Source: a virus
IMG/VR virus record: IMGVR_UViG_3300009496_000005
Span: 13,149-77,148 of that record
Reading direction: 5' to 3' (one strand)
Length of the DNA: 64,000 nt
A model generated the notes under the pieces. That model ran no database searches and was not told the origin of the DNA. It saw nothing but the letters and a program-made list of their open reading frames with translations. The position numbers were made by a program, and so were the translations under genes. Shown here one piece after another: positions 9,566-51,793 of the stretch. Numbering within the stretch: position 1 is the stretch's first letter; the number at the start of each line of letters is the position of its first letter.

Positions 9566-9802
9566 ATGCCCTACATAGAAAAAACAGGTAATAAAGCAAT
9601 AGCAGAACAACTATGGCAATGGGAAGGTGTGATGCACGACCCATATATAGATGGCTTTAATGGTTGGGGTTGTAAACAAAAGATTTACGAAGTTTACTGG
9701 CAAGCCAAAGAAGCACTAGATAATGCACCAACTTATGCTGGTGAAGATGAATGGCTTGAAGAAAAGAAATTCGATAAAGCATTTAACAGATTAAAAAAAT
9801 GA
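9566..9802 (+). CDS. hypothetical protein
   Basis: ORF MPYIEK.. Confidence 0.6.
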   Translation: MPYIEKTGNKAIAEQLWQWEGVMHDPYIDGFNGWGCKQKIYEVYWQAKEALDNAPTYAGEDEWLEEKKFDKAFNRLKK

Positions 9803-12223: not shown

Positions 12224-13150
12224 ATGAAAGAACTTTGGACAGAAAAATATAGACCTTCAAGCATTGAAACTTATGTTTTCAGAGATGATAAACAAAAGCG
12301 ACAGGTAAGTGGTTGGCTTGGAGATGGGGCACTACCACACTTGCTATTCAGTGGTGCTCCAGGAACAGGTAAAACAACATTAGCAAAAGTTTTACTGAAA
12401 GAATTAGATATTGATCCAATGGATGTGTTAGAGATTAATGCATCGAATGAAAACAATGTAGATACTATTCGTAATAAGATAACAAACTTTAGTAGCACAA
12501 TGCCTTTTGGTGATATGAAATATGTATTACTTGATGAGGCTGATTACATTACACCTAATGGACAAGCGGCACTTCGTGGTGTTATGGAAATGTATCATAC
12601 TAGTTGCAGGTTTTTACTGACATGTAATTATTCACAAAGAATTATTCCTGCATTGCATAGTAGATGTCAAGGGTTTCATATTGAAAAACTAGACATACAA
12701 GAGTTCACAGCAAGACTGGCAACTATTTGTATTGAAGAAGATGTTCAACTAGACGGTGAAACATTAGATACTTATGTCCAAGCAACATATCCAGACTTGC
12801 GTAAGAGCATTAACTTAGTGCAACAGAACGTAGTCGATGGTGTATTACAAAAGCCACAAGATGGCGATGGTGCAAGTTCAAGTGATTGGATGCTAAGTGC
12901 TATTGAAATGTTTAAAGGCGGAGACTATAAAGGTGCTAGAACAATGATTTGTAGTCAAGCAAGACCTGAGGAGTATGATGATGTATATAAATTTATGTAT
13001 CGTAACTTAGAACTTTGGGGAACTACAGACTTACAACAAGACCAGGCAGTTGTTATTATTAGAAACGGCATGGCAAAGAGCAGTTTATGTGCTGACCCTG
13101 AGATTAACCTTAGTGCAACACTTATCGAATTACAATTAAATTCAGCATAG
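12224..13150 (+). CDS. sliding-clamp loader subunit (RFC / gp44-like)
   Basis: WTEKYRP, GAPGTGKT, EINAS, LDEAD, SRC motif. Confidence 0.95.
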   Translation: MKELWTEKYRPSSIETYVFRDDKQKRQVSGWLGDGALPHLLFSGAPGTGKTTLAKVLLKELDIDPMDVLEINASNENNVDTIRNKITNFSSTMPFGDMKYVLLDEADYITPNGQAALRGVMEMYHTSCRFLLTCNYSQRIIPALHSRCQGFHIEKLDIQEFTARLATICIEEDVQLDGETLDTYVQATYPDLRKSINLVQQNVVDGVLQKPQDGDGASSSDWMLSAIEMFKGGDYKGARTMICSQARPEEYDDVYKFMYRNLELWGTTDLQQDQAVVIIRNGMAKSSLCADPEINLSATLIELQLNSA

Positions 13151-13167: not shown

Positions 13168-14616
13168 ATGAAATTTGTTTTGCTAACAGACTTAGGCAAG
13201 AAACCTACACGATCAGGCTTACTGTTTAATAATAGTAGAAGTTCTGGCAGTCTGCATATAGTAAGCGAAGCAAGAAACTTTGGTGCAGAAGCAACCGGCA
13301 TAGACTATTGGCGTAGTTGGCCTTATGAATTACTTAAAGAATCCATACTATCATATTTTAATGATGACTCTGAGCCTTGGTTAGCCTTAAGTGGAAGTAT
13401 AGACGGCAGTAGCACAGATGACTTTAAAATACTTGTAGATGATATAAAGAAAGAATTACCTCAACTTAAAGTTATGCTAGGTGGATACAGAGTTCCAGTT
13501 GGTGAAAAAGATTGGGTAGATATTGCATTCATTGGTAGAAGCACAAACTTGTTTAGGAGATGGTTAAACAAAGAGCCACTTGATCAATACATTATGTCTA
13601 CAGAACCTTTAACATTAAAAAATCCATGGGGTGAAATACTAGAAGAGCCAGTAAGTCCTATTGTTGTTCCAGAAGATTTTATATCAGACAGAGAAGTTTT
13701 AGTAGTAGAAACAGCATTAGGTTGTAAGTTTGATTGTAGTTTTTGTGGCTATGACTTTAGAAACAACAAAAAGCCTCATTTAATAGATGAGGAAGTATTA
13801 TATAACAGTTTAAAAACAGCACATGATATGTTTGGGGTTGACCATTTCTTCTTTGCTGATGATACAATTAACGAAGTAGATGTTAAATTAGAACTTATAG
13901 GCAGAGTAGTAGAGCAATTAGACTTTAATCCTTCATTCATGGCATTTGCTAGATTAGATGTGGTAGGTGCTAAAACACATCAAATTGATCTAATGCAAAA
14001 AGCAAACATAGATACATTATTTTTTGGCATAGAAAGTTTTAATCCTAATGTTACAAAGATGATTCGTAAAGGAGGCAAGCCAGATAAGTTATTAGACACA
14101 TTGAGATTATTTAAAAAAGAAATGCCAGATGCATTTACATACGCAAACTTTATTATAGGTCTTACTGGCGACACAGAAGAAAGCATTTGGGAACACGGAC
14201 ATAAACTTATAGAAGAACAACTTGTAACCAGTGCAGGCTGTAATGCTCTAAGAATTTATCAAAACTTAGATAATCCAGATGTAGAAAGTAATATAGATAA
14301 AGACCCAGAGAAATTTGGTTACGAACTTACAGGACAAGATAGAGAATGGCCGGAACTTGGATATACATCTAAAACTTGGAAGAACGATTGGATAGATGTT
14401 AAACAAGCAGAAGAACTTGCAAAAAAATATGATAAGGTAATGGCAGACGGATTAGAATCTGTGTTTACAGCACACGAGATATTAGGTATAGCAGGACTAT
14501 TTAAAGATAGATTACCTTGGAAAAATTATAATAATCTTTTACCTATAGCGAACAAAGGGCAAACTAAAATGCTCAATAAATATATAAAGAATAAAAGCAT
14601 GTTTTTAAAAAGGTAA
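13168..14616 (+). CDS. radical SAM protein (B12-binding-like N-terminus)
   Basis: LGCKFDCSFC, FADDTIN, FGIESF, FIIGL. Confidence 0.85.
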   Translation: MKFVLLTDLGKKPTRSGLLFNNSRSSGSLHIVSEARNFGAEATGIDYWRSWPYELLKESILSYFNDDSEPWLALSGSIDGSSTDDFKILVDDIKKELPQLKVMLGGYRVPVGEKDWVDIAFIGRSTNLFRRWLNKEPLDQYIMSTEPLTLKNPWGEILEEPVSPIVVPEDFISDREVLVVETALGCKFDCSFCGYDFRNNKKPHLIDEEVLYNSLKTAHDMFGVDHFFFADDTINEVDVKLELIGRVVEQLDFNPSFMAFARLDVVGAKTHQIDLMQKANIDTLFFGIESFNPNVTKMIRKGGKPDKLLDTLRLFKKEMPDAFTYANFIIGLTGDTEESIWEHGHKLIEEQLVTSAGCNALRIYQNLDNPDVESNIDKDPEKFGYELTGQDREWPELGYTSKTWKNDWIDVKQAEELAKKYDKVMADGLESVFTAHEILGIAGLFKDRLPWKNYNNLLPIANKGQTKMLNKYIKNKSMFLKR

Positions 14617-18314: not shown

Positions 18315-19127
18315 ATGGATTACTATGAAACACTTGGGGTTAATCACACCACAACCCCAAAGGAAATAAAAAAAGCATACCGCAAACTTGCTAGTAAACA
18401 TCATCCTGATAAAGGTGGTGATGCTGAACAATTCAAAAAGATCCAAGAAGCATACGACACTCTAAGTGACCCACAAAAGAAACAACAATACGATAATCCA
18501 GATCCGTTTGCAAACTTTCGAGGCGGTAATCCATTTGGCACAGGCAACTTTCAAGATATATTTACAGATATATTTGGCCAACGCAGGCAACCTCAACGCA
18601 ATCCGGATGGCATATTTGATATGGAAATAACTTTACAAGATGCTTTTCTAGGTAAAGAAATGACATTAAGCACACCAGAAGGTAGTGTTAATATAACTAT
18701 ACCCGCAGGTGTTAGACCAGGCACCAAGTTTAGGCTAGCCGGCAAGGCTGGTAGTAGGATTCCTCACTTGCCACCTGGCGACTTAATTGTTAGACTACAT
18801 ATTCAAAGTCCACGTGAATGGGGTAGAGAAGGAGATGACTTATTCATTAGAGCAGAAGTAAATGCTATAGAGGCCATGCGAGGTAGTTCTATACGAATTA
18901 TACATTTAGATGGCAAACAATATGATGTTACTATACCAGCAGGAACACAACCTGATGCTAAGATCAGAATGGCAGGATTAGGTATGACTAATCCAGGCAA
19001 TGGTATAGCAGGCAATCTAATTATAATAGTTGCTATCCATGTGCCCACAATCACAGATAATAATGACATAGAACTTTTAAATAAAATTAATAACAGAGAA
19101 AAGGACAACCGTAGGAGTTACAAATAA
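18315..19127 (+). CDS. DnaJ class II / CbpA-like co-chaperone
   Basis: J-domain with HPD, G/F region, no Zn finger, C-terminal substrate domain. Confidence 0.9.
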
Positions 19128-40397: not shown

Positions 40398-40425
40398 TTG
40401 ACAAATCTAAATAGTAATGTATAAT
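40398..40425 (+). promoter_or_regulatory. sigma70-type promoter
   Basis: TTGACA-N16-TATAAT. Confidence 0.65.
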
Positions 40426-40450: not shown

Positions 40451-41206
40451 ATGGCCGAAAATGCAATTAAAGATATCTTAAAAGATGTATTGAAACATAC
40501 ACATGGTTTAGGTATCTTCGAAATGGTAAAGATTACAGGAGACTTAGAAAAAACAGTAATAGAAACTGTTGATGCTGATAAGACTGTTATCTTTAAAGGT
40601 GAAACACTAAACCCAGTTCCTGACTTTGTAGACTCTACAGTTGGGTTAAGCAGAATGGGTGTGCTACAAGGATATTTAAGTTATCCTAGTTTTGATAGTG
40701 ACGATGCAACTGTGCAAGTAAAGTTTCAAGAAAGAAACGGATCTAACGTTCCAGTTGAAGTAGAATTTAACAGTGATGAAGGAACTGATGCTAATTATAG
40801 ATTTATGTTAGCAGATGTTATTAACCAGCAACTTAAAAGCATTAAGTTCAAAGGTGCTGAGTTTGATATTAACATTGTTCCTACAGCAAAGAACTTAAAG
40901 GACTTAGGTTACTTTAACACAATTCTTAGTTCATATGAAGCAATGTTCTCACCCTCTACTGATGGCACAGAACTATATTTTAATATAGGTGATGGTATTA
41001 GTGACAGGGCAAAAGTTCTTGTATCAGGTAGCATTGAAGGAGTTATTTCTAAAGATTGGAAATGGCCACTTGATGTTGTTCTTAGAATTCTAAGACTTGG
41101 AAACAGTGGTAATTGTGTTCTAAGTATTAACGATCAAGGATTATTACAAATTAAAGTAGATAGTGGACTAGGAGTCTACACTTACTTACTACCAGCAAAG
41201 AGTTAA
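40451..41206 (+). CDS. DNA polymerase sliding clamp (gp45-like)
   Basis: 251 aa after polB; YRFM, C-terminal YTYLLPA. Confidence 0.7.
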   Translation: MAENAIKDILKDVLKHTHGLGIFEMVKITGDLEKTVIETVDADKTVIFKGETLNPVPDFVDSTVGLSRMGVLQGYLSYPSFDSDDATVQVKFQERNGSNVPVEVEFNSDEGTDANYRFMLADVINQQLKSIKFKGAEFDINIVPTAKNLKDLGYFNTILSSYEAMFSPSTDGTELYFNIGDGISDRAKVLVSGSIEGVISKDWKWPLDVVLRILRLGNSGNCVLSINDQGLLQIKVDSGLGVYTYLLPAKS

Positions 41207-41209
41207 TTT

Positions 41210-42802
41210 ATGCATAATTTAGGCAAGACACAAAGTGATTACGCAGTATACTTACCTGCTATATCAAGTTTTTATACTAAGCAATTACAAAAATGCTTAG
41301 ACAATCCGGACGAGTGGAGAACTATAGAAGGATTTGAAAAGGGTCTTGCTGGTTTAGATTTTCTTAAAGATGATAGTTACTTCCATTATCCATATGGTTT
41401 GTATTCGGCAGGTCATGCTCACTTAGATTTAGAGAAGAGTGAGAGAGACGAAGCAATGATACAAAATAGAGATCGTGGCAAAACAATGATACTTGGTGAC
41501 TCAGGTGGATTCCAAATTGCTACTGGTGTTCTTAAAATGGATTGGGCAAACGCAAAAGATCCTAATGACCCTGCAAGGTTAGAACTTTGTCGTAAAATAT
41601 TACAATGGGAAGAGCATACAGCCGATTGGGCAATGACTCTTGACATTCCAGGTTTTGCGGCGGCGCCACCTTACAGTGATAAAACAGGACTAGAGTCGTT
41701 TCAAGATACTGTTGATATTTCAGTATTAAATTTAGATTACTTCTTAAGGAATAGAAATCCAGAGAAGTGTAAGTTCCTTAATGTGCTATCTGGTTCAGAT
41801 GAATACAGTTCAGATGTATGGTATGAAGCAGTTAAGCACTTTAGTGATCCTGCTTTTGTTAAAGAAGCATACGGAGATGAGAATAGAGCATTAGAAGGTT
41901 ACGCATTTGCAGGTATCAATATGCGTAATATGAGATGTGTATTAAAAAGAATTCTTAAACTTCGTGAAGACGGCCTGCTTAAAAACAAAGGTTGGATACA
42001 CTTTTTAGGAACTGGTAGATTACAATGGGCATGTCATTTAACATCAATACAACGAATGTTAAGAAAGCACGATTCTCCTAATATCACACTTTCATTTGAT
42101 GCGGCATCGCCCTTTGTAAATACTGCATACGGTCAAACTTATGCATACAACATCTTTGAAAACAAAGGCAAAAGATTTGGTTACTTTATGGATAGAGCAT
42201 TTGATAACCAGATGTTTAAAGGTAGTGATTTGCCTGCTCCGTTTGGACATAGTCCTATAATGAGTAGACTTACTATTGGTGACTTATGCTGTATGGCAGA
42301 AGGCGACCTTAATAGAAACGGTAAAGCAAAAGAGGCAGACTCTACAAGTTGGGATACATTAAGTTATATTTTATACATGGGTCATAGTGTATACAATCAT
42401 ATAAGTGCTGTTCAAGAAGCAAATAGGCTAACTGATATTGAGAAGCATAGAATTAATTGGTCGCATAAAGACTTTATACATGATAAGAAAAGTAAAGCAA
42501 CAAACGATATATCTCCGTATGTGCCTGCAGATGTAATAGCATTTGATAGTTTTGTCCAAGAGGTATTAGACCCAGCATGTCCTGACCCATACAAACTAAT
42601 TGATGATTACGATAAACTTATACAACAAATAAACTTTGGTATATACAAAGTCGATAACGAAGATCCAGAGAATGCTCTTAATGCCTTCTTTGAAGAAACA
42701 ACTAACCCAGTTGAAACAGGCGAGTTGCACGAAGATGAAGTTAGAGACTATGCCGACACTATGATGGACCCAGCAATGACAGGAGACTTTTTCGAAGAAT
42801 GA
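41210..42802 (+). CDS. tRNA-guanine transglycosylase-fold protein (DpdA-like DNA transglycosylase)
   Basis: LGDSGGFQ, MTLDIP, FLNVLSG, GYAFAG, IHFLG, SFDAAS (TGT catalytic Asp motifs). Confidence 0.85.
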   Translation: MHNLGKTQSDYAVYLPAISSFYTKQLQKCLDNPDEWRTIEGFEKGLAGLDFLKDDSYFHYPYGLYSAGHAHLDLEKSERDEAMIQNRDRGKTMILGDSGGFQIATGVLKMDWANAKDPNDPARLELCRKILQWEEHTADWAMTLDIPGFAAAPPYSDKTGLESFQDTVDISVLNLDYFLRNRNPEKCKFLNVLSGSDEYSSDVWYEAVKHFSDPAFVKEAYGDENRALEGYAFAGINMRNMRCVLKRILKLREDGLLKNKGWIHFLGTGRLQWACHLTSIQRMLRKHDSPNITLSFDAASPFVNTAYGQTYAYNIFENKGKRFGYFMDRAFDNQMFKGSDLPAPFGHSPIMSRLTIGDLCCMAEGDLNRNGKAKEADSTSWDTLSYILYMGHSVYNHISAVQEANRLTDIEKHRINWSHKDFIHDKKSKATNDISPYVPADVIAFDSFVQEVLDPACPDPYKLIDDYDKLIQQINFGIYKVDNEDPENALNAFFEETTNPVETGELHEDEVRDYADTMMDPAMTGDFFEE

Positions 42803-43701
42803 ATACTGTCAAAATAGCATTATGTTACAGCGGATTAGTAAATACTTGGGGATATTTAGATACCCATTATAAATTTACTAAGTTGTTTCCTAGTGCTGAT
42901 AATTTTGATATAAATGTGTTTGTGCATAGTTGGGATATTGAGCAAAATAAAATTAACATTAATAAGTTTAAAAGTGATTTAGAGAAACATGATGTGGTTA
43001 ATTCTGTTAATGTAACTATTACTCCTTACAAAGAGTTTGATGATTACATTGATTGGAAAGGCATAGAAAATGTATTTTTAACTTCAAAGATAAGAGACCA
43101 ATTAGGAATTAAAGAACAAATAGTGCATTTAAGTTTATCAGATAATAAGAAAGAAATACTACGATATAAGTTTGCACAATTTTGGAGCCAATGGCAATGC
43201 TTCGACATGTTGACTGAAGACTATGACTTAGTTGTTAGGATAAGACCTGATGTAAAAATAAACAGAGTTATGGAACATGTTGTAACAGAAAAACGTTTTC
43301 CTAAACAAACAACTTTTGAAGATTACATAAGTCTTATAAATAGCCCAACAGGTATTGATACAATAATAGGTATACGTTCATTAGATAATTTGTATGTTCC
43401 TAACCATCCTGTGGTGTTTGTAGATCTAAATCAAGGCGATATGGGTGTAACTAAGTATGGAACTAACATGGCTGATTGGTGTTGGTATATGGCAGGCAAA
43501 GACTTTAAAAAATTACAAAATAAATTTAATGATACAGAAGACTTTCTGAATGAGTTAGTAACTGTATATTTACAAATGGAAGATGATATGGAAGACCATG
43601 GAATGCATAGAGCATTGTGTAAAGTATTAATTGATCACGGTGCTATAGTTTATCCTTGGCCAGTTCTTGAAACATCTTTGGAGTGGGTATATAATGGATA
43701 A
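42799..43701 (+). CDS. hypothetical, glycosyltransferase-like (DxD) protein
   Basis: KIALCYSG, VFVHSW, YDLVVRIRPD. Confidence 0.5.
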   Translation: MNTVKIALCYSGLVNTWGYLDTHYKFTKLFPSADNFDINVFVHSWDIEQNKININKFKSDLEKHDVVNSVNVTITPYKEFDDYIDWKGIENVFLTSKIRDQLGIKEQIVHLSLSDNKKEILRYKFAQFWSQWQCFDMLTEDYDLVVRIRPDVKINRVMEHVVTEKRFPKQTTFEDYISLINSPTGIDTIIGIRSLDNLYVPNHPVVFVDLNQGDMGVTKYGTNMADWCWYMAGKDFKKLQNKFNDTEDFLNELVTVYLQMEDDMEDHGMHRALCKVLIDHGAIVYPWPVLETSLEWVYNG

Positions 43702-44206
43702 TAGAGACGGGCACACAGAAGACACAAGATACTTTATAGGCACAGAAGTAGAGCATACTCCAGCATACGGACAGAAAACATTGTTTGTAATAGGAGTGCA
43801 AAACTTAAAAGAAATACTTGCTAGAGCATTAAACAACAACTGCCCTCATATTTACTTAGGTGCTAATCAATCATTCCATCCTGAAACAGAAGCAGAGTGG
43901 ACTGAATGGAACTTTGTTATAGGTGGCTTAGTAAGTGAAGGCATTTGGGTAACACTGGATTATGATATTAAGTATCATGAAGAAGTATTAGAAGAAGGCT
44001 GGAATGAACAAAACAATTTTATATCTATGATTAGTGTGAAGATACCTTACATAGAGGCTCTGAACTACAATGCTTGTATAAAGTTTGACGATAAGGGATT
44101 TGATGCAACCAACCCAGGTGTTTGGGTGCGATCAATACATGAACTACAGTCACGTAAAGGATTTACCGACTGGACCAAATACACCAAGGATGAAATAATT
44201 GATTAA
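43694..44206 (+). CDS. hypothetical protein in deazaguanine cluster
   Basis: FIGTEVEHTPAYG.KTLFV, HIYLGANQSF, DDKGFDATNPGVW. Confidence 0.65.
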   Translation: MDNRDGHTEDTRYFIGTEVEHTPAYGQKTLFVIGVQNLKEILARALNNNCPHIYLGANQSFHPETEAEWTEWNFVIGGLVSEGIWVTLDYDIKYHEEVLEEGWNEQNNFISMISVKIPYIEALNYNACIKFDDKGFDATNPGVWVRSIHELQSRKGFTDWTKYTKDEIID

Positions 44207-44379
44207 TGATTATTGAAATAAAAGCAACAGATGATGATGGGATTGTGACTAGTATTACTATAGACGAAGATGTCTATAATGATGAAGGATTAGAAAACAT
44301 ATTTAAAAAGTTTACTATCTTTATGATAAAGAATGGTGCTGACCTCCCAGAAGAGATAACGGATTTTTTAGATGCATAA
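44206..44379 (+). CDS. small hypothetical protein (57 aa)
   Basis: TAATG-coupled ORF. Confidence 0.5.
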   Translation: MIIEIKATDDDGIVTSITIDEDVYNDEGLENIFKKFTIFMIKNGADLPEEITDFLDA

Positions 44380-44380
44380 A

Positions 44381-44527
44381 ATGTGGCATCACAACTGTAT
44401 AGAGATGGGCCCAACAGCAACATTACATGGTGAGCCATGCAGTTGGTGTGATGTTACACAAGAACATATAGAACAAGATGTATTGAATAAACCAATACAG
44501 TTAGAAGGAGAAGATTATAATGAGTAG
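44381..44527 (+). CDS. small His/Cys metal-binding peptide (48 aa)
   Basis: MWHHNC...GEPCSWC. Confidence 0.5.
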   Translation: MWHHNCIEMGPTATLHGEPCSWCDVTQEHIEQDVLNKPIQLEGEDYNE

Positions 44528-45182
44528 AATTAAAAAGGCAGTATTGTTTATTATTGTATTAGTTGTATTCTTATTAATTGCTACTCCGGCCCATGCAACA
44601 GGTAGTGCTAAGTTTGGCTTAACACAAATTAACAGTGACTCAACAACACTTAAAGCAAGTATAGATAACAGTTGGGATTTAGATTTAGTTGGAATAGTAT
44701 TAGAAACTGATTATGTTTACAAAGAGCAAGACGAAATTGTTAAAATGGATAAGTTCAGTGCTATAGGTAAAGTAAACAAAGAATTGTCAGAGAAGTATTA
44801 TGCATTTAGTGTAGTAAGTTATGATGCAGATAAATTAAGAACATCAGGTGATAGGATAGTTGGAGGTGCTGGTATTGGTTGGAAGATACTTAGAACTGAT
44901 AATTGGAAGATCAGTCATGAAAGTTCAGTAGCATATCTTACAAACGATGCAGTAAGCGAAGCAATATTTAGAAACAGTTTATGGATATTTTATAAACTAA
45001 ATGACAGTTTAAGTATTACTAATAAACTGCTTAATGAAACTGGCACCGATACATATTTGCGTAATGAAACATCAATCAATTACAGTTTAACAGAAACAGT
45101 TAGTATTGGGTTTAGTAATACATACACTGAAGACCCGGTTGACAATAATGTATTAAGTGTTACAATAGGAGTTAAGTGGTAA
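44520..45182 (+). CDS. DUF481/YdiY-like outer-membrane beta-barrel
   Basis: Signal peptide (AHA), amphipathic strands, GAGIGW, C-terminal Trp. Confidence 0.7.
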   Translation: MSRIKKAVLFIIVLVVFLLIATPAHATGSAKFGLTQINSDSTTLKASIDNSWDLDLVGIVLETDYVYKEQDEIVKMDKFSAIGKVNKELSEKYYAFSVVSYDADKLRTSGDRIVGGAGIGWKILRTDNWKISHESSVAYLTNDAVSEAIFRNSLWIFYKLNDSLSITNKLLNETGTDTYLRNETSINYSLTETVSIGFSNTYTEDPVDNNVLSVTIGVKW

Positions 45183-45184
45183 TA

Positions 45185-45601
45185 ATGACTGAAAAAACAT
45201 ATATTTTAAAACCTAAAAACAAAAAAAGTTTAGTGGAAAGAGTTATCTACGAAAAAGACGGAACTGTATTTTCTTACACTGAAGGCTATACCGGTGGCGA
45301 GTGGTTTTTTGTTGGTAATGAAGAACAAATGAAAATGTTACTTCCACCATTAGATGATGACTCTGTAGATATGAATATGTATCCTGATTGGGAATTTGTA
45401 GAGTCTGGGCAAGGACACACAAACGATTGGGAATTTGTAGGGCCTGCTGATGCTGAACTTGTGGAAGAAGCAGAGAACATCATGGAAGAAGATGGTCATT
45501 GGGCATTAGAAGAAGCAGGTTGGTGTTATGAAGATACTGAATGGTTAGTTTATAATGGATTAGAATTGACCGTTGAGGAGAAAAATAATGAACAATTTTG
45601 A
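45185..45601 (+). CDS. acidic hypothetical protein
   Basis: ORF. Confidence 0.6.
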   Translation: MTEKTYILKPKNKKSLVERVIYEKDGTVFSYTEGYTGGEWFFVGNEEQMKMLLPPLDDDSVDMNMYPDWEFVESGQGHTNDWEFVGPADAELVEEAENIMEEDGHWALEEAGWCYEDTEWLVYNGLELTVEEKNNEQF

Positions 45602-45758
45602 TAAAAACTTTCACATAAACTTTAGTCCACTATATTTTGCATTTGCATTTATGATGTTCATGCTATGGGCAAGTGAGGCGAAGGCCAGTGAGATAGAAAA
45701 TGAAAGAACATTGTCCATATGGACATGTAGTTTTGAAGGAAATACCTTTAGAATTTAA
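45588..45758 (+). CDS. short signal-peptide ORF, possible truncated exported protein
   Basis: GAGGAG SD; hydrophobic core + AKA cleavage, then only about 23 aa. Confidence 0.45.
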
Positions 45759-45796
45759 TAACGAAGGTAAGACTTCACAACAGAGAGAAAGATAGA

Positions 45797-45994
45797 ATGG
45801 CAACAGGAAAAGTAAAATGGTTTGATACAACTAAAGGTTTTGGATTTATTACACCAGATGACGGCAGTAAAGATGTGTTTGCACATCATACCGGTATTGC
45901 TGGTGATGGATACAAGTCACTTAACGAAGATCAAGAAGTAACTTTTGATGTTACTGAAGGTGCGAAAGGACCTCAAGCAAGTAACATAGTATAA
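45797..45994 (+). CDS. cspA: cold-shock protein
   Basis: GKVKWF, KGFGFI, DVFAH, KGPQA. Confidence 0.95.
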
Positions 45995-46004
45995 GGAGTA
46001 TTGT

Positions 46005-46439
46005 ATGAGAAGTATTTGGGTAACATTTAGTAAAGAAGGTATACATAAGTATCCTGCGGCATTAGAAGATCCTAATCTAGCAACTGGCGACGAGTATGAC
46101 GTCAGTTTTCTAGGATACCCTCATAGACATATTTTTCACTTTAAGGTATGGATTGAGGTGTTTCATGATGATAGAGACATTGAATTCATACAATTTAAAA
46201 GATGGTTGGAGAATCAGTATAGAGATGCTATTCTCCAACTTGATTATAAGTCATGCGAGATGATCGCAGATGACTTAGCAGAAACGATCACGGATAGGTA
46301 TCCAGGTCGTTACATAAAGATTTCAGTAGCCGAAGATAATGAAAACGGTTGCGAAATGGAGTATCCAGTAGAAGAATTGGATGGTCCAAGTTTTGAGGAT
46401 ACAGACGCAATAGCAGATGTATTCGATAGTTTAAAATAA
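46005..46439 (+). CDS. queD: QueD-like 6-carboxytetrahydropterin synthase (T-fold)
   Basis: EGIH...HRHIFHFKV, DRDIEF, SCEMIA, V.EDNENG. Confidence 0.7.
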   Translation: MRSIWVTFSKEGIHKYPAALEDPNLATGDEYDVSFLGYPHRHIFHFKVWIEVFHDDRDIEFIQFKRWLENQYRDAILQLDYKSCEMIADDLAETITDRYPGRYIKISVAEDNENGCEMEYPVEELDGPSFEDTDAIADVFDSLK

Positions 46440-46454
46440 CCAAGGAGAAATATA

Positions 46455-46631
46455 ATGGAAACACATTTAAAACTTAAAGCACTCTTCGAAGAGTATATTG
46501 CAGAACAGGATAACTTTGAAATCAAATGCGTTAAAGCATCAGCCACAAGAGCAAGAAAGGCTCTTATGGAGATTTCGAAACTTACTAAAGTTCGTAGACA
46601 AGAAATCCAAGACAGAAAGAACTCAATGTAA
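46455..46631 (+). CDS. Hc1-like small basic (histone H1-like family) protein
   Basis: AAGGAG SD; KASATRARKALMEISKL.K.RR.EIQ. Confidence 0.65.
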   Translation: METHLKLKALFEEYIAEQDNFEIKCVKASATRARKALMEISKLTKVRRQEIQDRKNSM

Positions 46632-46783
46632 TGGAAGAGAAATCAAACACATCAAGTGAACCTAAAAAGATTAGCAAAGACGAAGCAGAAAAAATGTCAG
46701 ACTTTGCACAGAATCTAGATGACCCAATTACTCATGTAGTTGACTATGGTGATATAGGACTTGACAAAAACAGTAAAAAGTAG
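46631..46783 (+). CDS. small hypothetical protein (50 aa)
   Basis: TAATG-coupled ORF. Confidence 0.5.
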   Translation: MEEKSNTSSEPKKISKDEAEKMSDFAQNLDDPITHVVDYGDIGLDKNSKK

Positions 46784-46789
46784 TATAAT
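46761..46789 (+). promoter_or_regulatory. sigma70-type promoter (leaderless)
   Basis: TTGACA-N17-TATAAT, ATG 6 nt later. Confidence 0.75.
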
Positions 46790-46795
46790 TTTAAT

Positions 46796-47842
46796 ATGAA
46801 AGTCTATATCGTAGAGATAGAGCCTGTAGAAACTAGATACACGGCTGAGTGGAAACAACATTTGCCTAGGCAAATGGAATCTGCTGGGTTAGATGTAACT
46901 GTTATACATGGTCCTGATGATGCTCCGGATGATACTACTCCAGGAGCATTCCTCAATTTCAGTGGCACTAACTACTGGAAGAGCGGACAAATGATGCAAA
47001 TTGCTAGTTTGTTTGCTGAGGGCAAGATCAACGATGGTGACTACTTTTTATATACTGATGCATGGAATCCTACTGTTATACAATTAAAGTATATGGCTGA
47101 ATTACTAGGCGTCAATATAAAAATAGGTGGAATGTGGCATGCAGGATCATATGACCCTGCAGACTTCTTAGGCAGACTTATAGGTGATAAACCTTGGGTT
47201 AGAAATGCTGAAAGAAGTATGTATGATTGTTTTGATCATAACTTTTTTGCAACACAATTTCATATCGATATGTTTATGGATAACTTTCCAGAAGCAGACA
47301 CTAATAAACTTTATAGGGTAGGTTGGCCAATGGAATACATGGAAAACTTACTTTATGATTATGGAAGTGAAGCAAACAAATATGATATGATATTGTTCCC
47401 ACATAGACTTGCACCTGAAAAGCAAGTCGACATATTTAAAGATTTATCAGACAGTATGCCTGATGTAGAGTTTGTTGTTTGTCAAGAACAGACACTAACA
47501 AAGGATGAGTATCATATGCTACTAAGCAGAAGTAAAATTGTGTTTAGTGCAAATACTCAAGAGACATTAGGTATAAGTTGCTACGAAGGAGCATTAGTAA
47601 ATGCTTCTCCGTTAGTGCCTGATAGATTAAGTTACACAGAAATGTATGACGAAGAATATAAGTATCCAAGTGAATGGACGGAGAACTTCGAAACCTACTT
47701 GGAACACAAAGATAAACTTATGGCAAAAATAAGGCAAATACTTGGCAAGAGCAATGAATTACAAAATGAAAAATTGGCATCGCATTTAAGTGAGCACTTT
47801 TTTAATGGTAATGCATTGTATAATATAATAGGAAATCAATAA
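46796..47842 (+). CDS. GT-B fold glycosyltransferase
   Basis: WHAGSYD, FPHRLAPEKQ, QETLGISCYEG (E-x7-E), LSYTE. Confidence 0.8.
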   Translation: MKVYIVEIEPVETRYTAEWKQHLPRQMESAGLDVTVIHGPDDAPDDTTPGAFLNFSGTNYWKSGQMMQIASLFAEGKINDGDYFLYTDAWNPTVIQLKYMAELLGVNIKIGGMWHAGSYDPADFLGRLIGDKPWVRNAERSMYDCFDHNFFATQFHIDMFMDNFPEADTNKLYRVGWPMEYMENLLYDYGSEANKYDMILFPHRLAPEKQVDIFKDLSDSMPDVEFVVCQEQTLTKDEYHMLLSRSKIVFSANTQETLGISCYEGALVNASPLVPDRLSYTEMYDEEYKYPSEWTENFETYLEHKDKLMAKIRQILGKSNELQNEKLASHLSEHFFNGNALYNIIGNQ

Positions 47843-48804
47843 TGAGCAACGAGCAGAAAACAATTTTAGTTACAGGAGGCAGTGGATTTATTGGAAGTGT
47901 GACATGTAAGTTTCTAGTAGACTCCGGCTACAATGTAATTAATATCGATAGAACAAAAAGACAACAAGAAGGTGTGCATCAATATCCATTTGATATAGAC
48001 AATCATCAACTAGAAGGTGTTATTGCACTTACAAAACCAGATGCAGTTATACATTTGGCCGCTGACCATAGTGTGCCACTAAGTATAGAAGCACCTGCAG
48101 ACACATACTATAACAACGTTGCAAACTCAATTGCATTGTTAAAGCATTGTGTTAGGAATAATGTAAAACATTTCGTCTTTAGTAGTTCAAGTTCTGTGTA
48201 TGGCAATAGTGATTTCGTTTTAAATACAGAAACAGACCCAACCAACCCTTTAACACCATACGGTAAAAGTAAACAAATGATAGAGGAAGTCCTTAAAGAC
48301 TTTTCTAATGCTTATGAACTATCATTTGCAAGTTTGAGATACTTTAATGCCGCAGGTAGTTATGAAGGTTTAGGTTACACATTAGATCCAAAGAGTCATT
48401 TACTTCCAATAGTTGTAGACAAAGCACTGAAAGGTGAGCCGTTTACTATTAATGGTGAGGACTATGATACTAAAGATGGCACATGTGAAAGAGACTACAC
48501 TCATGTAGCCGATATTGCATCTGCTCATGTATCTGCACTTAACTATCTATTCGATGGTGGTGGTGGTGGAGTGTTTAACATAGGTGGTGGTAGTAGTAGA
48601 AGTATTAAAGACGTAATTGCAGAAGTTGAAAAGCAATTAGATTTAACAATAGATACTAAAGTTGGACCAAGAAGAGAAGGAGACCCAGACAAAACATCAG
48701 CCAATATTCAAAAGGCATGGGAAGAGTTTGGTTGGGAATCAACTCTTGATTTAGAAGATATAGTTAGAGATGAAATTGCTTATCAAAAAAGCCTACAAAA
48801 ATAA
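47842..48804 (+). CDS. galE: UDP-glucose 4-epimerase
   Basis: TGGSGFIG, HLAA, FSSS, YGKSK, LRYFN, RDYTHV. Confidence 0.9.
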   Translation: MSNEQKTILVTGGSGFIGSVTCKFLVDSGYNVINIDRTKRQQEGVHQYPFDIDNHQLEGVIALTKPDAVIHLAADHSVPLSIEAPADTYYNNVANSIALLKHCVRNNVKHFVFSSSSSVYGNSDFVLNTETDPTNPLTPYGKSKQMIEEVLKDFSNAYELSFASLRYFNAAGSYEGLGYTLDPKSHLLPIVVDKALKGEPFTINGEDYDTKDGTCERDYTHVADIASAHVSALNYLFDGGGGGVFNIGGGSSRSIKDVIAEVEKQLDLTIDTKVGPRREGDPDKTSANIQKAWEEFGWESTLDLEDIVRDEIAYQKSLQK

Positions 48805-48805
48805 C

Positions 48806-48834
48806 TTGACAAATAGGTCTAAAGGAGATATACT
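48806..48834 (+). promoter_or_regulatory. sigma70-type promoter (leaderless)
   Basis: TTGACA-N17-TATACT, ATG 6 nt later. Confidence 0.65.
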
Positions 48835-48840
48835 ATAAGC

Positions 48841-49320
48841 ATGGATAAATTATTTTACTCATACAATAACATGGTATCTGACTGTAGACATATAGTGCGA
48901 GAAATGGCGCATGAAAGTTACAAGCCTGAAGTTATAATTGGGCCTGGCAGAGGCGCATATCCTTTTGGTGTTATGCTTAGTCATTACTTTGAAGTTCCGT
49001 TTGAAGCATTCCGTTGGCAAACAAGAGACGGTGCAATCGAAGATTCCGAGACCTTAAGACACATTTTGTCTAAATACAATGGTAAAACAGTATTAGTTGT
49101 AGATGATATTAACGATACTGGCACAACACTAATAGGTATAGATGAAGTTATTAAAGGATCACAAAGAGTCGATATGGTTACAGCACATCAGGATATAACT
49201 TACTCTACACTATTTGATAAAGAGTCTAGTAAGTTTTCTAATGTTAGATTTACAGCAAATAATGTTTTACCAGATGAAGAAAAATGGATAGTATTCCCTT
49301 ACGAGGAGTGGTGGAAATGA
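48841..49320 (+). CDS. purine phosphoribosyltransferase (Gpt/Hpt-like)
   Basis: VLVVDDINDTGTT PRPP loop, WIVFPYE. Confidence 0.88.
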   Translation: MDKLFYSYNNMVSDCRHIVREMAHESYKPEVIIGPGRGAYPFGVMLSHYFEVPFEAFRWQTRDGAIEDSETLRHILSKYNGKTVLVVDDINDTGTTLIGIDEVIKGSQRVDMVTAHQDITYSTLFDKESSKFSNVRFTANNVLPDEEKWIVFPYEEWWK

Positions 49321-49526
49321 AAGAAGCACATATTAGGTCAGTAAGTAGAAGTAACCCTTCTAAAGGACAGTTTGCATCAATGTTTGTTGTTGACTTGTTT
49401 AAGAATAAAGATAAGATAGGTTTTATTGAACTTCCTGGCAAGAGTAAATACTATGCTGAAGACGTTGTTGAGAATTGGGAAACAGGTATAATTAAGGAAA
49501 ACAATGAGCACATTATCAAGTCTTAG
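49317..49526 (+). CDS. hypothetical protein
   Basis: ORF. Confidence 0.55.
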   Translation: MKEAHIRSVSRSNPSKGQFASMFVVDLFKNKDKIGFIELPGKSKYYAEDVVENWETGIIKENNEHIIKS

Positions 49527-49704
49527 TAATCATCTTAAAGTCTTAGAAGCAAGACACAAAGAGTTAGATGATAAAATTATTGACGACTACGAACATCACA
49601 TGGACGATACAGCATTAGCAAACGAAAAGATTGAGAAACTTAATCTTAAAAGAGAAATAGAAGAACTGAAGGAACGAATTAAGGAGTTAGAAGATGGCAG
49701 TTAG
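49504..49704 (+). CDS. YdcH/DUF465-like coiled-coil protein
   Basis: L...H.ELD..I...K.EKL.LKREI. Confidence 0.65.
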   Translation: MSTLSSLSNHLKVLEARHKELDDKIIDDYEHHMDDTALANEKIEKLNLKREIEELKERIKELEDGS

Positions 49705-50383
49705 TGATACAATTAAGAAAAGGCTACAAGAAGCCGGTGATAGGTTTTGGGCAGGAGATAATATTTCTGCACACATTCAAGAAGGTGAGAAGCAACAACT
49801 GATTGATGAACTTACTCCTAAGTTTGAAGCCGTGTTAGATGGTCTAGTTATCGATATTGAGAACGATCCTAACAGTAATAACACAGGCAGACGTCTTGCT
49901 AAGATGTATGTCAATGAACTAATGAGTGGCAGGTATGACCCTATGCCAGTAGCAACTGCTTTCCCTAATGACAGTAAAGATAGATACGAAGGCATGTTAG
50001 TTGTGCGTAGTGAACTTACAAGTATGTGTTCACATCATCACCAGATTGTTAGAGGTGTAGCATACATTGGTATTATTGCCGCTGACAAACTAATTGGTTT
50101 AAGTAAATATACTCGTATAGCACAATGGTGTGCAATGCGTGGAACATTACAAGAAGAACTTGCTAACGACATTGTTAGAGAGATTCAGAAGGCCACAGGT
50201 GCAGAGCACTTAGGTGTTTATGTGCAGGCAACACACGGTTGCGTAGAGAACAGAGGTGTTAAAGCACATAGCAGTCTTACACAAACAACTGTTCTTAAAG
50301 GTGCATTTAAAGATGACCCTGCTACTAAAAAAGAGTTTATGGATAATATTAAATTGCAACAATCATATGCGTGTGATAGATAA
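49694..50383 (+). CDS. folE: GTP cyclohydrolase I
   Basis: SMCSHH, IGLSKYTR, LQE, HGCVENRGV. Confidence 0.95.
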   Translation: MAVSDTIKKRLQEAGDRFWAGDNISAHIQEGEKQQLIDELTPKFEAVLDGLVIDIENDPNSNNTGRRLAKMYVNELMSGRYDPMPVATAFPNDSKDRYEGMLVVRSELTSMCSHHHQIVRGVAYIGIIAADKLIGLSKYTRIAQWCAMRGTLQEELANDIVREIQKATGAEHLGVYVQATHGCVENRGVKAHSSLTQTTVLKGAFKDDPATKKEFMDNIKLQQSYACDR

Positions 50384-50910
50384 TGATAGAAACTAGAAAT
50401 GCAACTAACACAATGGTCTTAAGTAGATCAGGTGTAAACATTTGGAATATTGCTGATATGCTTTTAGAAAAGAAATCATTCGAGTTCTTAATGAATAGAT
50501 TTCCAGTTACTAGAGAAGAAATATTTGCAGTTATAGATGTAGTTGCAGATAGTAAATGTAATCATGTTGAAGGCGATATTGAATTTAGAGATATTGGCAT
50601 TGATGGTCATGTATCTTTAGAAACTATAAGCATAAGCGAAGGTATGTATTTTAATATTATTTCCTTTGCAAGAATATGGTATCCTGAAGAAGATAACTTA
50701 ACATTCCTTTATGAGAAAGGACTGAGTTATATTTTGATAGAAATATTTACAGATATAAGTAACGGAGTAGATACCTATATAGATAATGATTTGCATGACA
50801 TAGTATATCATGCAGTCAAATATGCAGTAGGTCCTATAACTGATCCTAACTTTATTTTAAGTGGCTTACCAATAGAGGAATACAATCAAATTAAATATGA
50901 AACAACCTAA
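50383..50910 (+). CDS. hypothetical protein (DUF433-like N-terminus)
   Basis: SGVNIWNI..ML..KSFE.LM.RFPVTREEI pattern. Confidence 0.5.
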   Translation: MIETRNATNTMVLSRSGVNIWNIADMLLEKKSFEFLMNRFPVTREEIFAVIDVVADSKCNHVEGDIEFRDIGIDGHVSLETISISEGMYFNIISFARIWYPEEDNLTFLYEKGLSYILIEIFTDISNGVDTYIDNDLHDIVYHAVKYAVGPITDPNFILSGLPIEEYNQIKYETT

Positions 50911-51793
50911 ATTAAGATATAGCGAAGCATTTTATAGTGTGCAAGGAGAAGGCAGATTTGTCGGTGTGCCTAGTGTATTTTTAAGAACTTTTGGTTGTAA
51001 CTTTGAATGTGCAGGCTTTGGACAAGAACGTGGTAATTTAATTGCCACTAGTGAAATGCCATATGCAACAGACCCAAGAGCAGACAAGAACCACCCGGAT
51101 GCTTATAAGAGCATTGAAGATTTACCAGTCACTCCAATAGGATGTGATTCCAGTGCCAGTTGGGCAATGAAGTATAAACATCTACAGATGACAAAAACTG
51201 TAGACGAAGTAGTTGATCACATTACTTCGCTTCTTCCAAACGGCACATTTACCGGCCGACACGGTGAAGACATACACCTGGTGATCACAGGTGGTGAACC
51301 GCTACTAGGGTGGCAACGTGTTTGGCCGAATCTGTTAGATGAGTTACATAACGAATATGGTTTAGTTAATGTAACATTTGAAACTAACGGCAGTAAGTTT
51401 TGTGAAGATAATATGATTGAATACTTTAATGGTGATGGCAGTGGTATTCATGTAACTTGGTCAACCTCACCTAAACTATCAATCAGCGGAGAAACAAGAG
51501 AAGATACTCTTATGCCTGATTGTTTACTGTCAATGAATAAAGTTAAAAACAGTTTTTTATACAACAAATTTGTTGTTAGAGATATGATCGACTTTGATGA
51601 AGTTGATCTGTATGTGGATGCATACAAGAATGCAGGAGTAATATTAGACTCTATATTTTGTATGCCAGAGGGTGCTACATTTGAGCAACAAGCACTAACA
51701 GAAAAAGATGTTGCAGAGGCTTGTATGCTTACAGGATACAAGTTTAGTCCAAGATTACATATTAACTTATTTGGTAATGCTTGGGGAACATAG
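50897..51793 (+). CDS. queE: 7-carboxy-7-deazaguanine synthase (radical SAM)
   Basis: EAFYSVQGEG, FLRTFGCNFEC..GCDS, ITGGEP, ETNG, SPKL, PRLH. Confidence 0.92.
   Translation: MKQPKLRYSEAFYSVQGEGRFVGVPSVFLRTFGCNFECAGFGQERGNLIATSEMPYATDPRADKNHPDAYKSIEDLPVTPIGCDSSASWAMKYKHLQMTKTVDEVVDHITSLLPNGTFTGRHGEDIHLVITGGEPLLGWQRVWPNLLDELHNEYGLVNVTFETNGSKFCEDNMIEYFNGDGSGIHVTWSTSPKLSISGETREDTLMPDCLLSMNKVKNSFLYNKFVVRDMIDFDEVDLYVDAYKNAGVILDSIFCMPEGATFEQQALTEKDVAEACMLTGYKFSPRLHINLFGNAWGT

Follow-up and report, generated by a model that had tools for sequence, protein, structure and literature searches.

A glycosyltransferase gene beside 7-deazaguanine DNA-modification genes in a marine jumbo phage, and the sugar-decorated base that it suggests

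Does the glycosyltransferase (GT) gene that lies among the deazaguanine genes of a marine jumbo phage serve the same DNA modification? The window analysed here, 64,000 nucleotides of IMG/VR record IMGVR_UViG_3300009496_000005 (positions 13,149 to 77,148), belongs to a contig of 77 kb, which represents about 21% of the genome according to CheckV. We read the locus (Table 1) as a replication-linked DNA-modification module, which would make a 7-deazaguanine, insert it into the phage DNA and include a dedicated sugar-transfer step, and give this reading a probability of about 0.5. Every open reading frame named in an initial annotation was recovered on the plus strand with its coordinates, and the gene list stands apart from two labels, "QueD-like" for 46005 and "DxD GT-like" for 42799, which were changed.

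Table 1. Features of the locus; genes are cited in the text by their first position
Feature	Coordinates	Strand	Basis
Clamp-like protein (context; replication module polB-clamp-TGT)	40451..41206	+	phrog_12062 at 1.7e-47
Divergent DpdA-like guanine transglycosylase, TGT fold, 530 aa	41210..42802	+	structure and motifs
Orphan accessory ORF, 300 aa	42799..43701	+	outside conserved module
Conserved protein o179, family of no assigned function, between TGT and DpdL	43694..44206	+	neighbourhood conservation
Lineage-specific insert: DUF481 protein, 141-aa ORF, cold-shock protein	44520..45994	+	Pfam
DpdL, QueD paralogue, proposed CDG decarboxylase	46005..46439	+	motif and homology
Sigma-70-type promoter consensus, 12/12	46761..46789	+	perfect TTGACA-17-TATAAT
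DpdL-associated GT4-like retaining glycosyltransferase, GT-B	46796..47842	+	fold, motifs, neighbourhood
GalE-type NDP-sugar 4-epimerase/dehydratase, accessory sugar supply	47842..48804	+	Pfam Epimerase 1.3e-56, phrog_540
Type I purine-type phosphoribosyltransferase (PRTase)	48841..49320	+	Pfam Pribosyltran 8.5e-15
FolE, GTP cyclohydrolase I	49694..50383	+	Pfam 2.5e-37, phrog_2197
Accessory ORF, 175 aa, dispensable	50383..50910	+	closest loci only
QueE-like radical SAM CDG synthase	50897..51793	+	phrog_2076 at 8e-50

Genes of the deazaguanine module

The clamp-like gene, whose homologue in phage Phosso is annotated as a sliding clamp, lies directly upstream of the transglycosylase (TGT) gene in 78 of 80 related loci, and a perfect sigma-70 consensus is found here at 40398-40425. 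The 41210 protein, which has an acidic C-terminal tail, matches nothing in Pfam or NCBIfam. A Foldseek search with its AF2 model (pLDDT 77, pTM 0.80) listed TGT/QTRT1 first, at a probability of 1.00, and DpdA (7ui4) at rank 30, and VIA gave Z scores of 17-18 across about 300 residues; both comparisons group the protein with TGT, QTRT1, ArcTGT and DpdA. The motifs GDSGGFQ (D97), TLDIP (D145) and SFDAAS (D297) are unchanged in 28 homologues of a family exceeding 4,276 members, in which EST35_0316 of Pseudomonas phage PA5oct is 48% identical. The TGT fold proposed initially is thus upheld by model, structural matches and catalytic aspartates, and 41210 falls in a divergent DpdA-like lineage to which the PA5oct protein also belongs.

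Three neighbours of this gene differ in their conservation. The 42799 ORF, initially thought to resemble a DxD glycosyltransferase, finds no support as such: it belongs to no Pfam or NCBIfam family, a search of 1.84 billion proteins gave only seven representatives, and none of the 80 related loci has a homologue. The o179 protein occurs in 62 of 80 related loci and in 61 of 63 loci chosen by their GT; none of its approximately 3,800 homologues is named or has a Pfam family, and searches of PDB profiles, Pfam and Atlas returned nothing. The insert (DUF481 at 4.7e-18, CSD at 4.9e-28) was seen in only one or two of the 80 loci, and a natural DNA variant fuses 45186 to 45699, deleting the 141-aa ORF.

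The T-fold gene at 46005 had been taken for QueD. Its motif, L36-x3-H40-R41-H42-x-F44, is invariant and equals the DpdL signature LxxxHRHxF (PMC10516641), and tblastn aligned it with the DpdL of phage ACP17 (55%, 2e-38) and with gp040 of phiST (34%, 1e-5); motif and homology together rule out QueD and identify 46005 as DpdL, with a predicted activity, the decarboxylation of CDG to 7-deazaguanine. A DpdL HMM found matches in nine isolate phages. No canonical QueD was detected in the 77 kb contig. QueC, earlier found missing from the window, is likewise absent from the whole contig, where the sole PP-loop match is NadE, and from five complete related phage genomes with both GT and DpdL. The core of the initial proposal, a deazaguanine module joined to a glycosylation step, is kept. 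Because the T-fold gene is DpdL, 7-deazaguanine or a DpdL product is a likelier base than the CDG first envisaged.

The remaining precursor genes were assigned as initially proposed. FolE was present in all 47 GT-chosen loci having enough downstream DNA, and the PRTase, with an intact PRPP loop (VLVVDDINDTGTT), in 43 of these 47. In the QueE-like protein an insert of 44 residues separates the second cluster cysteine from the third; NCBIfam QueE models match the N-terminus of the protein below their own cut-offs, and it aligned with the QueE of PA5oct, BUDD and phiST. The 175-aa ORF upstream was seen only in the closest loci, and a natural contig omits it, joining 50375 to 50915.

The glycosyltransferase and its association with DpdL

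The GT-B assignment of 46796 is borne out by fold and motifs. The predicted structure (pLDDT 86) gave VIA Z scores of 19-21 against retaining enzymes of families GT4, GT5 and GT20, and both the EX7E motif (E256-x7-E264) and the HR..K motif (H203/R204/K209) are invariant; the protein is a GT4-like, retaining-type GT-B enzyme. The structures most similar to it are those of glycosyltransferases that act on small molecules or glucans (BshA, MshA, BGluT, glycogen synthase), and the 50 structural matches listed do not include the T4 DNA glucosyltransferases AGT and BGT. BshA, MshA and BGluT share the GT-B fold (Z 19-20), the EX7E motif and the retaining-type architecture, yet are only 8-13% identical, and the N-terminal acceptor domain of 46796 is specific to the phage family; it is through this acceptor-side domain that two GT subfamilies cross-match. 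The GT is acidic (pI 4.7), as are all neighbouring proteins. A consensus for the separate promoter ascribed to the GT/GalE pair is present, its -10 element ending 7 nt before the ATG of the GT.

The initial annotation had staked its interpretation on GT and GalE accompanying dpdA and que genes in related genomes. Of the related loci chosen by their TGT, 53 extend 7 kb or more past that gene on its downstream side, and the GT slot is filled in 52 of these; the single exception (L021) has lost DpdL as well. In the reverse test, loci chosen by their GT contained DpdL in 77 of 77 cases, at a median gap of 236 bp, and the TGT in 63 of 63. GalE did not follow this pattern: the epimerase assignment holds, yet the gene is accessory and occurs in about 45% of loci (29 of 80 related; 21 of 47 GT-chosen). 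The protein at 9799, initially suggested as a further sugar source in the form of a UDP-Glc dehydrogenase, is truncated to 267 aa. A large part of the synteny seen in metagenomes reflects common descent and is not independent.

Isolate phages extend the comparison. Out of 50,697 records, 23 carry the GT family and 28 DpdL; both occur in 18, with the GT 0-2.7 kb from DpdL. In isolates, the GT family hardly occurs outside phages that bear DpdL. These 18 form six lineages with varying gene orders: TGT-GT-DpdL in PA5oct, DpdL-GT in Phosso (TGT about 170 kb away), DpdA-GT-DpdL-QueE in ACP17, GT-TGT-DpdL-QueE in BUDD, DpdL-GT in BUCT-ZZ01, and GT and DpdL separated by 2.7 kb in BCSR5. On these counts the GT is well supported as a companion of the deazaguanine genes.

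The association bears directly on an explanation that we consider unlikely, namely that the DNA carries plain dDG or dCDG as in phiST, while the GT acts on something else (for instance a protein, an envelope precursor or another metabolite) and is co-inherited as part of a block. PhiST-type phages form dDG with DpdL and no GT (PMC10516641), and the GT is therefore not required for the base itself; moreover, the structures closest to it are generic GT4 enzymes, common descent can preserve synteny within one clade, and a distant GT relative in PhiXhv-12 has GlmS and an LmbE-type deacetylase as neighbours and no DpdL nearby. However, the GT-DpdL adjacency survives rearrangements across distinct backbones, including those of the T4-like ACP17 and BUCT-ZZ01, and is kept in Phosso despite the remote TGT; the near absence of the GT from phages lacking DpdL and the joint loss in L021 also argue against a mere passenger.

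Proposed route and its alternatives

Folds, motifs, homologies and neighbourhoods are observed at the locus; the chemical steps, DNA target, sugar and acceptor atom are those that we infer, as follows. FolE would convert GTP to H2NTP, and a canonical QueD would supply CPH4; since it is absent from the 77 kb fragment, QueD would come either from the host or, as in PA5oct, from another part of the phage genome. QueE would make CDG, which DpdL would convert, probably to 7-deazaguanine, and the divergent transglycosylase would exchange DNA guanine for the deazapurine. The GT would transfer a sugar from an NDP-hexose to the deazapurine, acting on the free base ahead of its insertion or on the DNA once it carries the base, with the GalE-type epimerase equilibrating the donor in this phage. 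The PRTase would most likely salvage the released guanine, or may activate the deazapurine base.

A free pterin or deazapurine intermediate might instead be the acceptor, glycosylated as BGluT does tetrahydrobiopterin, the sugar being a transient handle or metabolic sink that stays out of DNA. The good structural matches include similar-sized tetrahydrobiopterin glucosyltransferases (5zes and 9v0w, Z about 19), the closest GT relatives act on small-molecule acceptors, and FolE and T-fold enzymes generate pterins. This possibility appears rather improbable: the BGluT matches carry no specific signal, because dozens of other GT4 enzymes score equally well, and the cluster has no conserved sugar-removing hydrolase.

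The PRTase invites a pre-replicative route, in which it would join the deazapurine to PRPP, the nucleotide would be reduced, phosphorylated and incorporated by PolB, and the TGT-fold protein would serve tRNA or repair. TubE and ToyH attach a deazapurine to PRPP in this manner in tubercidin and toyocamycin synthesis. The conservation of the PRTase, its recurrence in the BUCT-ZZ01 cluster (annotated there as XGPRT) and an IMPDH/GMP-reductase gene between FolE and PRT in one relative (L045) would agree with such a route. It is nevertheless very improbable, as no gene of the module is better conserved than that of the TGT-fold protein, which adjoins polB and the clamp, the only PRT-like match in PA5oct is weak, and every known 7-deazaguanine phage encodes DpdA, the published model being post-replicative exchange (PMC10516641).

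Relation to known modification systems

The preferred reading, modification by exchange with a sugar-transfer step, follows the logic of T4 glucosyl-hydroxymethylcytosine, in which a non-canonical base receives the sugar of an NDP-sugar through a phage GT-B enzyme. Here, in contrast, the base is a purine with no hydroxymethyl handle, and ThyA-type enzymes, the hydroxymethylases, are absent from ACP17 and BUCT-ZZ01, where the GT therefore has no hydroxymethyl-pyrimidine acceptor. The lack of an obvious hydroxyl acceptor in 7-deazaguanine counts against a sugar on the base.

The closest described path, that of phiST and ACP17-type phages, leads through FolE-QueD-QueE-DpdL-DpdA to dDG (Cui et al. 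2023, PMC10516641). It shares FolE, QueE, DpdL with its signature, a TGT-family transglycosylase, the lack of QueC and a location beside replicative polymerase genes, and ACP17 also has the GT and o179 (ASD50402). PhiST, however, has a 259-aa DpdA3 and no GT, whereas the present locus has a dedicated GT, no QueD in the cluster and a 530-aa transglycosylase lineage missed by DpdA/TGT models. When ACP17 dpdA and dpdL alone were expressed in E. coli, no dDG was formed, and the authors suggested that further enzymes may be needed (PMC10516641).

In PA5oct (Wroclawvirus), EST35_0316-0322 share polB, the clamp-like gene, TGT (48%), GT (48%), DpdL (58%) and QueE, followed by RNaseH; the block differs in having no GalE, FolE or o179, with two canonical PTPS/QueD genes at a distance of about 55 kb. 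PA5oct DNA contains modified G, resists cleavage at G-containing restriction sites and is attacked by END nucleases, which are reported to restrict only phages with hypermodified DNA (PMC12191111, preprint).

No paper in the literature searched ties a GT to deazaguanine. The regular position of the GT beside deazaguanine genes, here and in several cultured phages, suggests a sugar-decorated deazaguanine base, on which the sugar would end up in the DNA. If this is true, the modified base would be a sugar-carrying deazaguanine that has so far not been described.

Setting and organization of the gene block

The window covers 64 kb of a single IMG/VR viral contig of 77 kb, whose completeness CheckV puts at ~21%; the whole genome would accordingly measure roughly 360 kb. 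Within the window, the GC content is ~35% and almost all genes lie on the + strand. Among cultured phages, the key proteins have their nearest relatives in the PA5oct-like Pseudomonas jumbo phages, in Phosso (a Sinorhizobium phage) and in Vibrio phage 2.275.O. Megablast of the cluster region gave no match among isolate phages. Near-identical DNA is found in more than 10 metagenome studies, of marine, seawater and estuary samples. Contigs from RNA libraries cover parts of the TGT, GT and QueE genes, a coverage which is no proof of transcription.

All of the ORFs named in the initial annotation are present, and its FolE, PRTase and QueE labels are confirmed (Table). The proteins encoded at 41210, 42799, 43694 and 46796 have no family match in Pfam, PHROGs or NCBIfam, and that at 46005 matches nothing but phrog_17812, a PHROG without assigned function. 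A perfect sigma-70 consensus promoter stands before the clamp-like gene and another before the GT, which upholds the promoter earlier ascribed to the latter. In front of both the GT and the PRTase, the -10 consensus element ends 7 nt 5' of the ATG; these genes would then lack a leader, unless their real start codons are situated further downstream.

Coordinates of the features discussed (window positions, unless a related locus or contig is named)
Feature	Position	Basis or remark
UDP-glucose/GDP-mannose dehydrogenase homologue	9799-10602	267 aa, truncated form
Clamp-loader-like AAA+ protein	12224-13150	directly before the 482-aa radical SAM protein
Radical SAM protein of unknown role	13168-14616	482 aa; Pfam 1.5e-17
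Phage-encoded full DnaJ co-chaperone	18315-19127	J domain and C-terminal domain
PolB	37677	confirmed by Pfam/PHROGs/NCBIfam
Clamp-like protein	40451	confirmed by Pfam/PHROGs/NCBIfam
Predicted TGT-fold enzyme	41210	fold matches, catalytic motifs
Orphan ORF	42799	
o179, conserved ORF	43694	
Predicted DpdL	46005	motif, homology
-10 element to start codon of GT	46784-46796	
GT	46796	GT-B fold (model)
GalE-type epimerase	47842	confirmed by Pfam/PHROGs/NCBIfam
-10 element to start codon of PRTase	48829-48841	
Type I PRTase	48841	confirmed by Pfam/PHROGs/NCBIfam
FolE	49694	confirmed by Pfam/PHROGs/NCBIfam
QueE-like radical SAM enzyme	50897-51793	Pfam/PHROGs/NCBIfam
FEN/RNaseH	53404	confirmed by Pfam/PHROGs/NCBIfam
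NadE (NAD synthase), phage-encoded	L002:5938-6891	contig upstream of window; Pfam 1.4e-40
ATP-dependent DNA ligase	L002:11326-12333	after NadE
Subtilase (Peptidase_S8)	L033:14939-16960	673 aa; 7.7e-38; one relative
IMPDH/GMP-reductase-family gene	L045:17362-18435	Pfam 2.7e-67
GlmS/LmbE-type deacetylase/GT trio	L091:6618-9852	Xanthomonas phage PhiXhv-12
Bakedbeans gp176	L094:6215-7366	383 aa; Vibrio phage

Several genes of the block are accessory: those for the DUF481 protein, the 141-aa protein and the cold-shock protein, and a 175-aa ORF that separates FolE from QueE. Contigs of the marine DNA run X1 join across 45186-45699 and 50375-50915, and natural variants lacking the 141-aa and 175-aa ORFs therefore exist. 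The conserved o179 also occurs in ACP17. Pfam (26 members), PDB profile, Atlas and 5.8-billion-protein searches assigned it no function, and an 'Arr-ms' identification (Atlas row, 0.90) was at chance level and was rejected. The neighbouring ORF at 42799 had been described as a DxD-type, GT-like protein; the searches gave no GT signal, and this label was abandoned.

Transglycosylase, DpdL and a proposed route from CDG

The protein encoded at 41210 matches neither PF01702 nor any other Pfam or NCBIfam model, and none of the best 120 homologues listed (60-93% identity), from a family of more than 4,276 members, carries a Pfam domain. Its AF2 model (pLDDT 77, pTM 0.80) was matched by Foldseek, at a probability of 1.00, to TGT, QTRT1, ArcTGT and the DNA preQ0 insertase DpdA (7ui4), and VIA aligned ~300 residues at Z 17-18 with the TGT (beta/alpha)8 fold. 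The motifs GDSGGFQ (D97), TLDIP (D145) and SFDAAS (D297) are invariant in an alignment of 28 sequences. Together, the fold matches and motifs mark the protein as a TGT-fold enzyme, as first proposed, and one in which the catalytic aspartates are kept. The HMM of its family fails to reach the candidate DpdA proteins of ACP17, BUDD, BCSR5 and BUCT-ZZ01, and hhalign of the family against phiST DpdA3 yields a probability of 17.6%. Its motif order agrees with that of ACP17 DpdA, again at low probability; comparisons of TGT or DpdL profiles with single isolate proteins are good for motif order only. The protein is treated as a putative separate DpdA-like lineage, which it shares with PA5oct (48% identity) and Phosso. 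A putative DNA rather than tRNA target is indicated indirectly, by the adjoining polB and clamp genes and by the modified G in PA5oct DNA (PMC12191111).

At the site of the QueD motif CxxxHGH, the protein encoded at 46005 reads LGYPHRHIFHF, and six of its residues (L36, H40, R41, H42, F44 and H14) vary little or not at all among 28 sequences of the family, the Zn histidines being retained. The change to LxxxHRHxF was used to define DpdL, an enzyme proposed to decarboxylate CDG in phiST, a phage with dDG (Cui et al. 2023, PMC10516641). By tblastn, the protein matches ACP17 DpdL (55%, 2e-38) and phiST gp040 (34%, 1e-5), while the DpdL HMM scores 5.5e-49 against ACP17 DpdL and 2.9e-21 against phiST CGPG_00067. 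As judged from motif and homology, the protein is DpdL, the proposed decarboxylase. DpdL is a QueD paralogue; identity as QueD itself, suggested by the original QueD-like label, was rejected in view of the DpdL motif, the Leu in place of the catalytic Cys and the missing PF01242 match. Searches of the PDB by phmmer and profile gave chance matches only, and weak PTPS signals appear in 5 of 28 family members, besides an Atlas lead. In gp176 of Vibrio phage Bakedbeans, DpdL makes up the last third of the protein and is fused to an N-terminal domain of ~260 aa.

No QueD is found in the 77 kb contig, either as a PF01242 match or with a QueD HMM built from five phages. A canonical QueD lies within the cluster in five related loci (L056, L057, L071, L165 and L167) and in BCSR5, ACP17 and BUCT-ZZ01, and elsewhere in the genome in PA5oct. 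QueC, which the initial annotation did not recognise in the window, is not found in the whole contig either: the sole PP-loop match, a candidate upstream of the window, proved to be NadE. Five relatives with complete genomes, PA5oct, ACP17, Phosso, BUCT-ZZ01 and BCSR5, have no QueC either. DpdL is accompanied by FolE, QueE and DpdA, with no QueC. The presence of DpdL and the lack of QueC in the contig and its five relatives suggest that the pathway halts at CDG and then goes on via DpdL.

The protein encoded at 50897 matches phrog_2076 (8e-50), and five NCBIfam QueE models match its residues 6-44 at scores far under their cut-offs. Its C34-x3-C38-x44-C83(DS) pattern aligns with the QueE proteins of PA5oct, BUDD and phiST, and it has the radical SAM core, the cluster Cys triad and a QueE-type N-terminus. 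The insert between the second and third Cys varies in length: this form also occurs in PA5oct and BUDD and, with a short insert, in phiST. The canonical CxxxCxxC is kept in QueE of ACP17 and in one Phosso protein.

The glycosyltransferase and its gene neighbourhood

The GT encoded at 46796 belongs to a family of at least 8,000 candidates. It has no Pfam match, PF00534 (Glycos_transf_1) is carried by only 1 of its 120 listed homologues, and a sister subfamily scores 21-33 bits against that model (cut-off 26.4). The structural model (pLDDT 86) shows a two-Rossmann GT-B fold, and its best matches (Z 19-21) are retaining GT4/GT5/GT20 enzymes, among them sucrose-phosphate synthase, BshA, MshA, GlgM, glycogen synthase, trehalose-6-phosphate synthase and tetrahydrobiopterin glucosyltransferase. 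E256-x7-E264, H203, R204 and K209, corresponding to the EX7E motif and the basic residues for an NDP-sugar, are invariant in 24 sequences. The enzyme thus looks catalytically competent and NDP-sugar dependent, and the GT-B assignment made at the outset stands.

The modelled fold gives no clue to the acceptor. Charge and pI fail to separate DNA from a small-molecule acceptor, all proteins here being acidic. It may be that the GT acts on a free intermediate; small-molecule enzymes are among its structural matches, and we rank this option, as unlikely, after that of plain dDG. The T4 enzymes AGT and BGT are absent among the 50 matches listed by Foldseek and VIA. Unlike T4-type DNA glucosyltransferases, whose acceptor is supplied by a co-encoded ThyA-type hydroxymethylase, the GT occurs in ACP17 and BUCT-ZZ01 without such an enzyme (PF00303) in their complete genomes, and it cannot therefore serve hydroxymethyl-pyrimidine there.

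The GT family is present in 23 and DpdL in 28 of 50,697 isolate records, and 18 records have both. HMMs were built for two GT subfamilies, that of the window and that of BUCT-ZZ01, which cross-match via the N-terminal, acceptor-side domain; all six isolate records retrieved with the latter have DpdL. The GT stays near DpdL despite differing gene orders: TGT-GT-DpdL in PA5oct, DpdL-GT in Phosso (with the TGT ~170 kb off), o179-DpdA-GT-DpdL-QueE in ACP17, GT-TGT-DpdL-QueE in BUDD/X1 and DpdL-GT in BUCT-ZZ01, the two genes being 2.7 kb apart in BCSR5. DpdL occurs without the GT in the phiST group and five other phages. The main rival explanation, whereby the DNA would carry plain dDG and the GT would be unrelated to the base, we consider unlikely. 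In the PhiXhv-12 group, which has no DpdL, a distant GT relative lies beside GlmS and an LmbE-type deacetylase; the trio hints at a pathway for GlcN-type modification in these phages of 227 kb, and a weak TGT-like match occurs elsewhere in their genomes.

The same linkage is seen in IMG/VR loci, which are related to each other and are counted as one lineage. For the 80 loci that the TGT retrieved, the genes run polB, clamp, TGT, o179, DpdL, GT, (GalE), (PRT), FolE, QueE, o171, FEN. With the HMMs of the two subfamilies, a GT is found 1.5-7.1 kb downstream of the TGT, on the same strand, in 52 of the 53 loci with at least 7 kb downstream; the exception, L021, is missing DpdL too. Conversely, the 80 loci fetched with the GT contain DpdL (77/77, median gap 236 bp), TGT (63/63), FolE (47/47), QueE (43/47), PRT (43/47) and GalE (21/47). 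The neighbourhood conservation that the initial annotation had asked for is thus borne out. The frequent PRTase could point to a pre-replicative route; we regard this as the least likely explanation, and a very improbable one. In single relatives, a subtilase is inserted between GT and QueE, and an IMPDH/GMP-reductase-type gene lies between FolE and PRTase, reminiscent of reductive deamination in the pathways to deazapurine nucleoside antibiotics.

As for the sugar supply once proposed, the GalE-type epimerase is real, yet its pairing with the GT is not constant (~45% of loci). The dehydrogenase homologue is present but without the initial part of its NAD-binding domain and without any C-terminal domain, and neither upstream frames nor adjoining ORFs contain the missing parts.

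A possible sugar on 7-deazaguanine

The best-supported reading, with a probability of about one half, is a DpdL-type deazaguanine DNA-modification module to which a sugar step, performed by the GT, would be added. The original observation largely holds, although the QueD and 42799 labels have fallen. Its interpretation is supported in part, the linkage of the GT to deazaguanine genes being strengthened by comparative genomics; the sugar chemistry we infer. The weakest point of this chemistry is that 7-deazaguanine has no obvious hydroxyl acceptor. N2-glycosylated 7-deazapurines are known as natural products (huimycin, dapiramicins), and C-glycosides on electron-rich pyrrole carbons are possible in principle; both are leads, not evidence. 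An example would be hexosyl-dDG linked via N2, or a pyrrole-ring C-glycoside. Eight derivatives of 7-deazaguanine have been described in phage DNA, none of them known to bear a sugar. Literature searches found no paper that ties 7-deazaguanine bases in DNA to a GT or to any sugar.

Tentatively, and at somewhat short of even odds, we propose an undescribed class of DNA hypermodification, glycosylated 7-deazaguanine. A GT family specific to phages and travelling with DpdL would make it, and it would be widespread among abundant marine jumbo phages besides occurring in the cultured PA5oct, ACP17, Phosso, BUCT-ZZ01, BCSR5 and BUDD/X1. Several carriers being cultured phages, the prediction is open to testing by LC-MS. 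If true, it would extend the DNA bases by a new chemical class and the acceptors of GTs by a new type. It would also address two observations: the modified G of PA5oct DNA, not identified in a preprint according to which restriction by END nucleases is confined to phages with hypermodified DNA (PMC12191111), and the failure of ACP17 dpdA and dpdL to give dDG in E. coli (PMC10516641). Host glycosylases that excise plain 7-deazaguanine exist (bioRxiv 10.1101/2025.10.29.685425), and they provide a selective reason for further decoration of the base. These genes are abundant: both the TGT family and the GT family have thousands of members, and near-identical DNA recurs across marine and estuary metagenomes from many studies. 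The prediction also bears on defence and counter-defence involving restriction enzymes, END nucleases and deazaguanine-excising glycosylases, and the sugar, if present, could shield the DNA, as a second layer, from defences which recognise 7-deazaguanine in its plain form, Dag DNA glycosylases among them.
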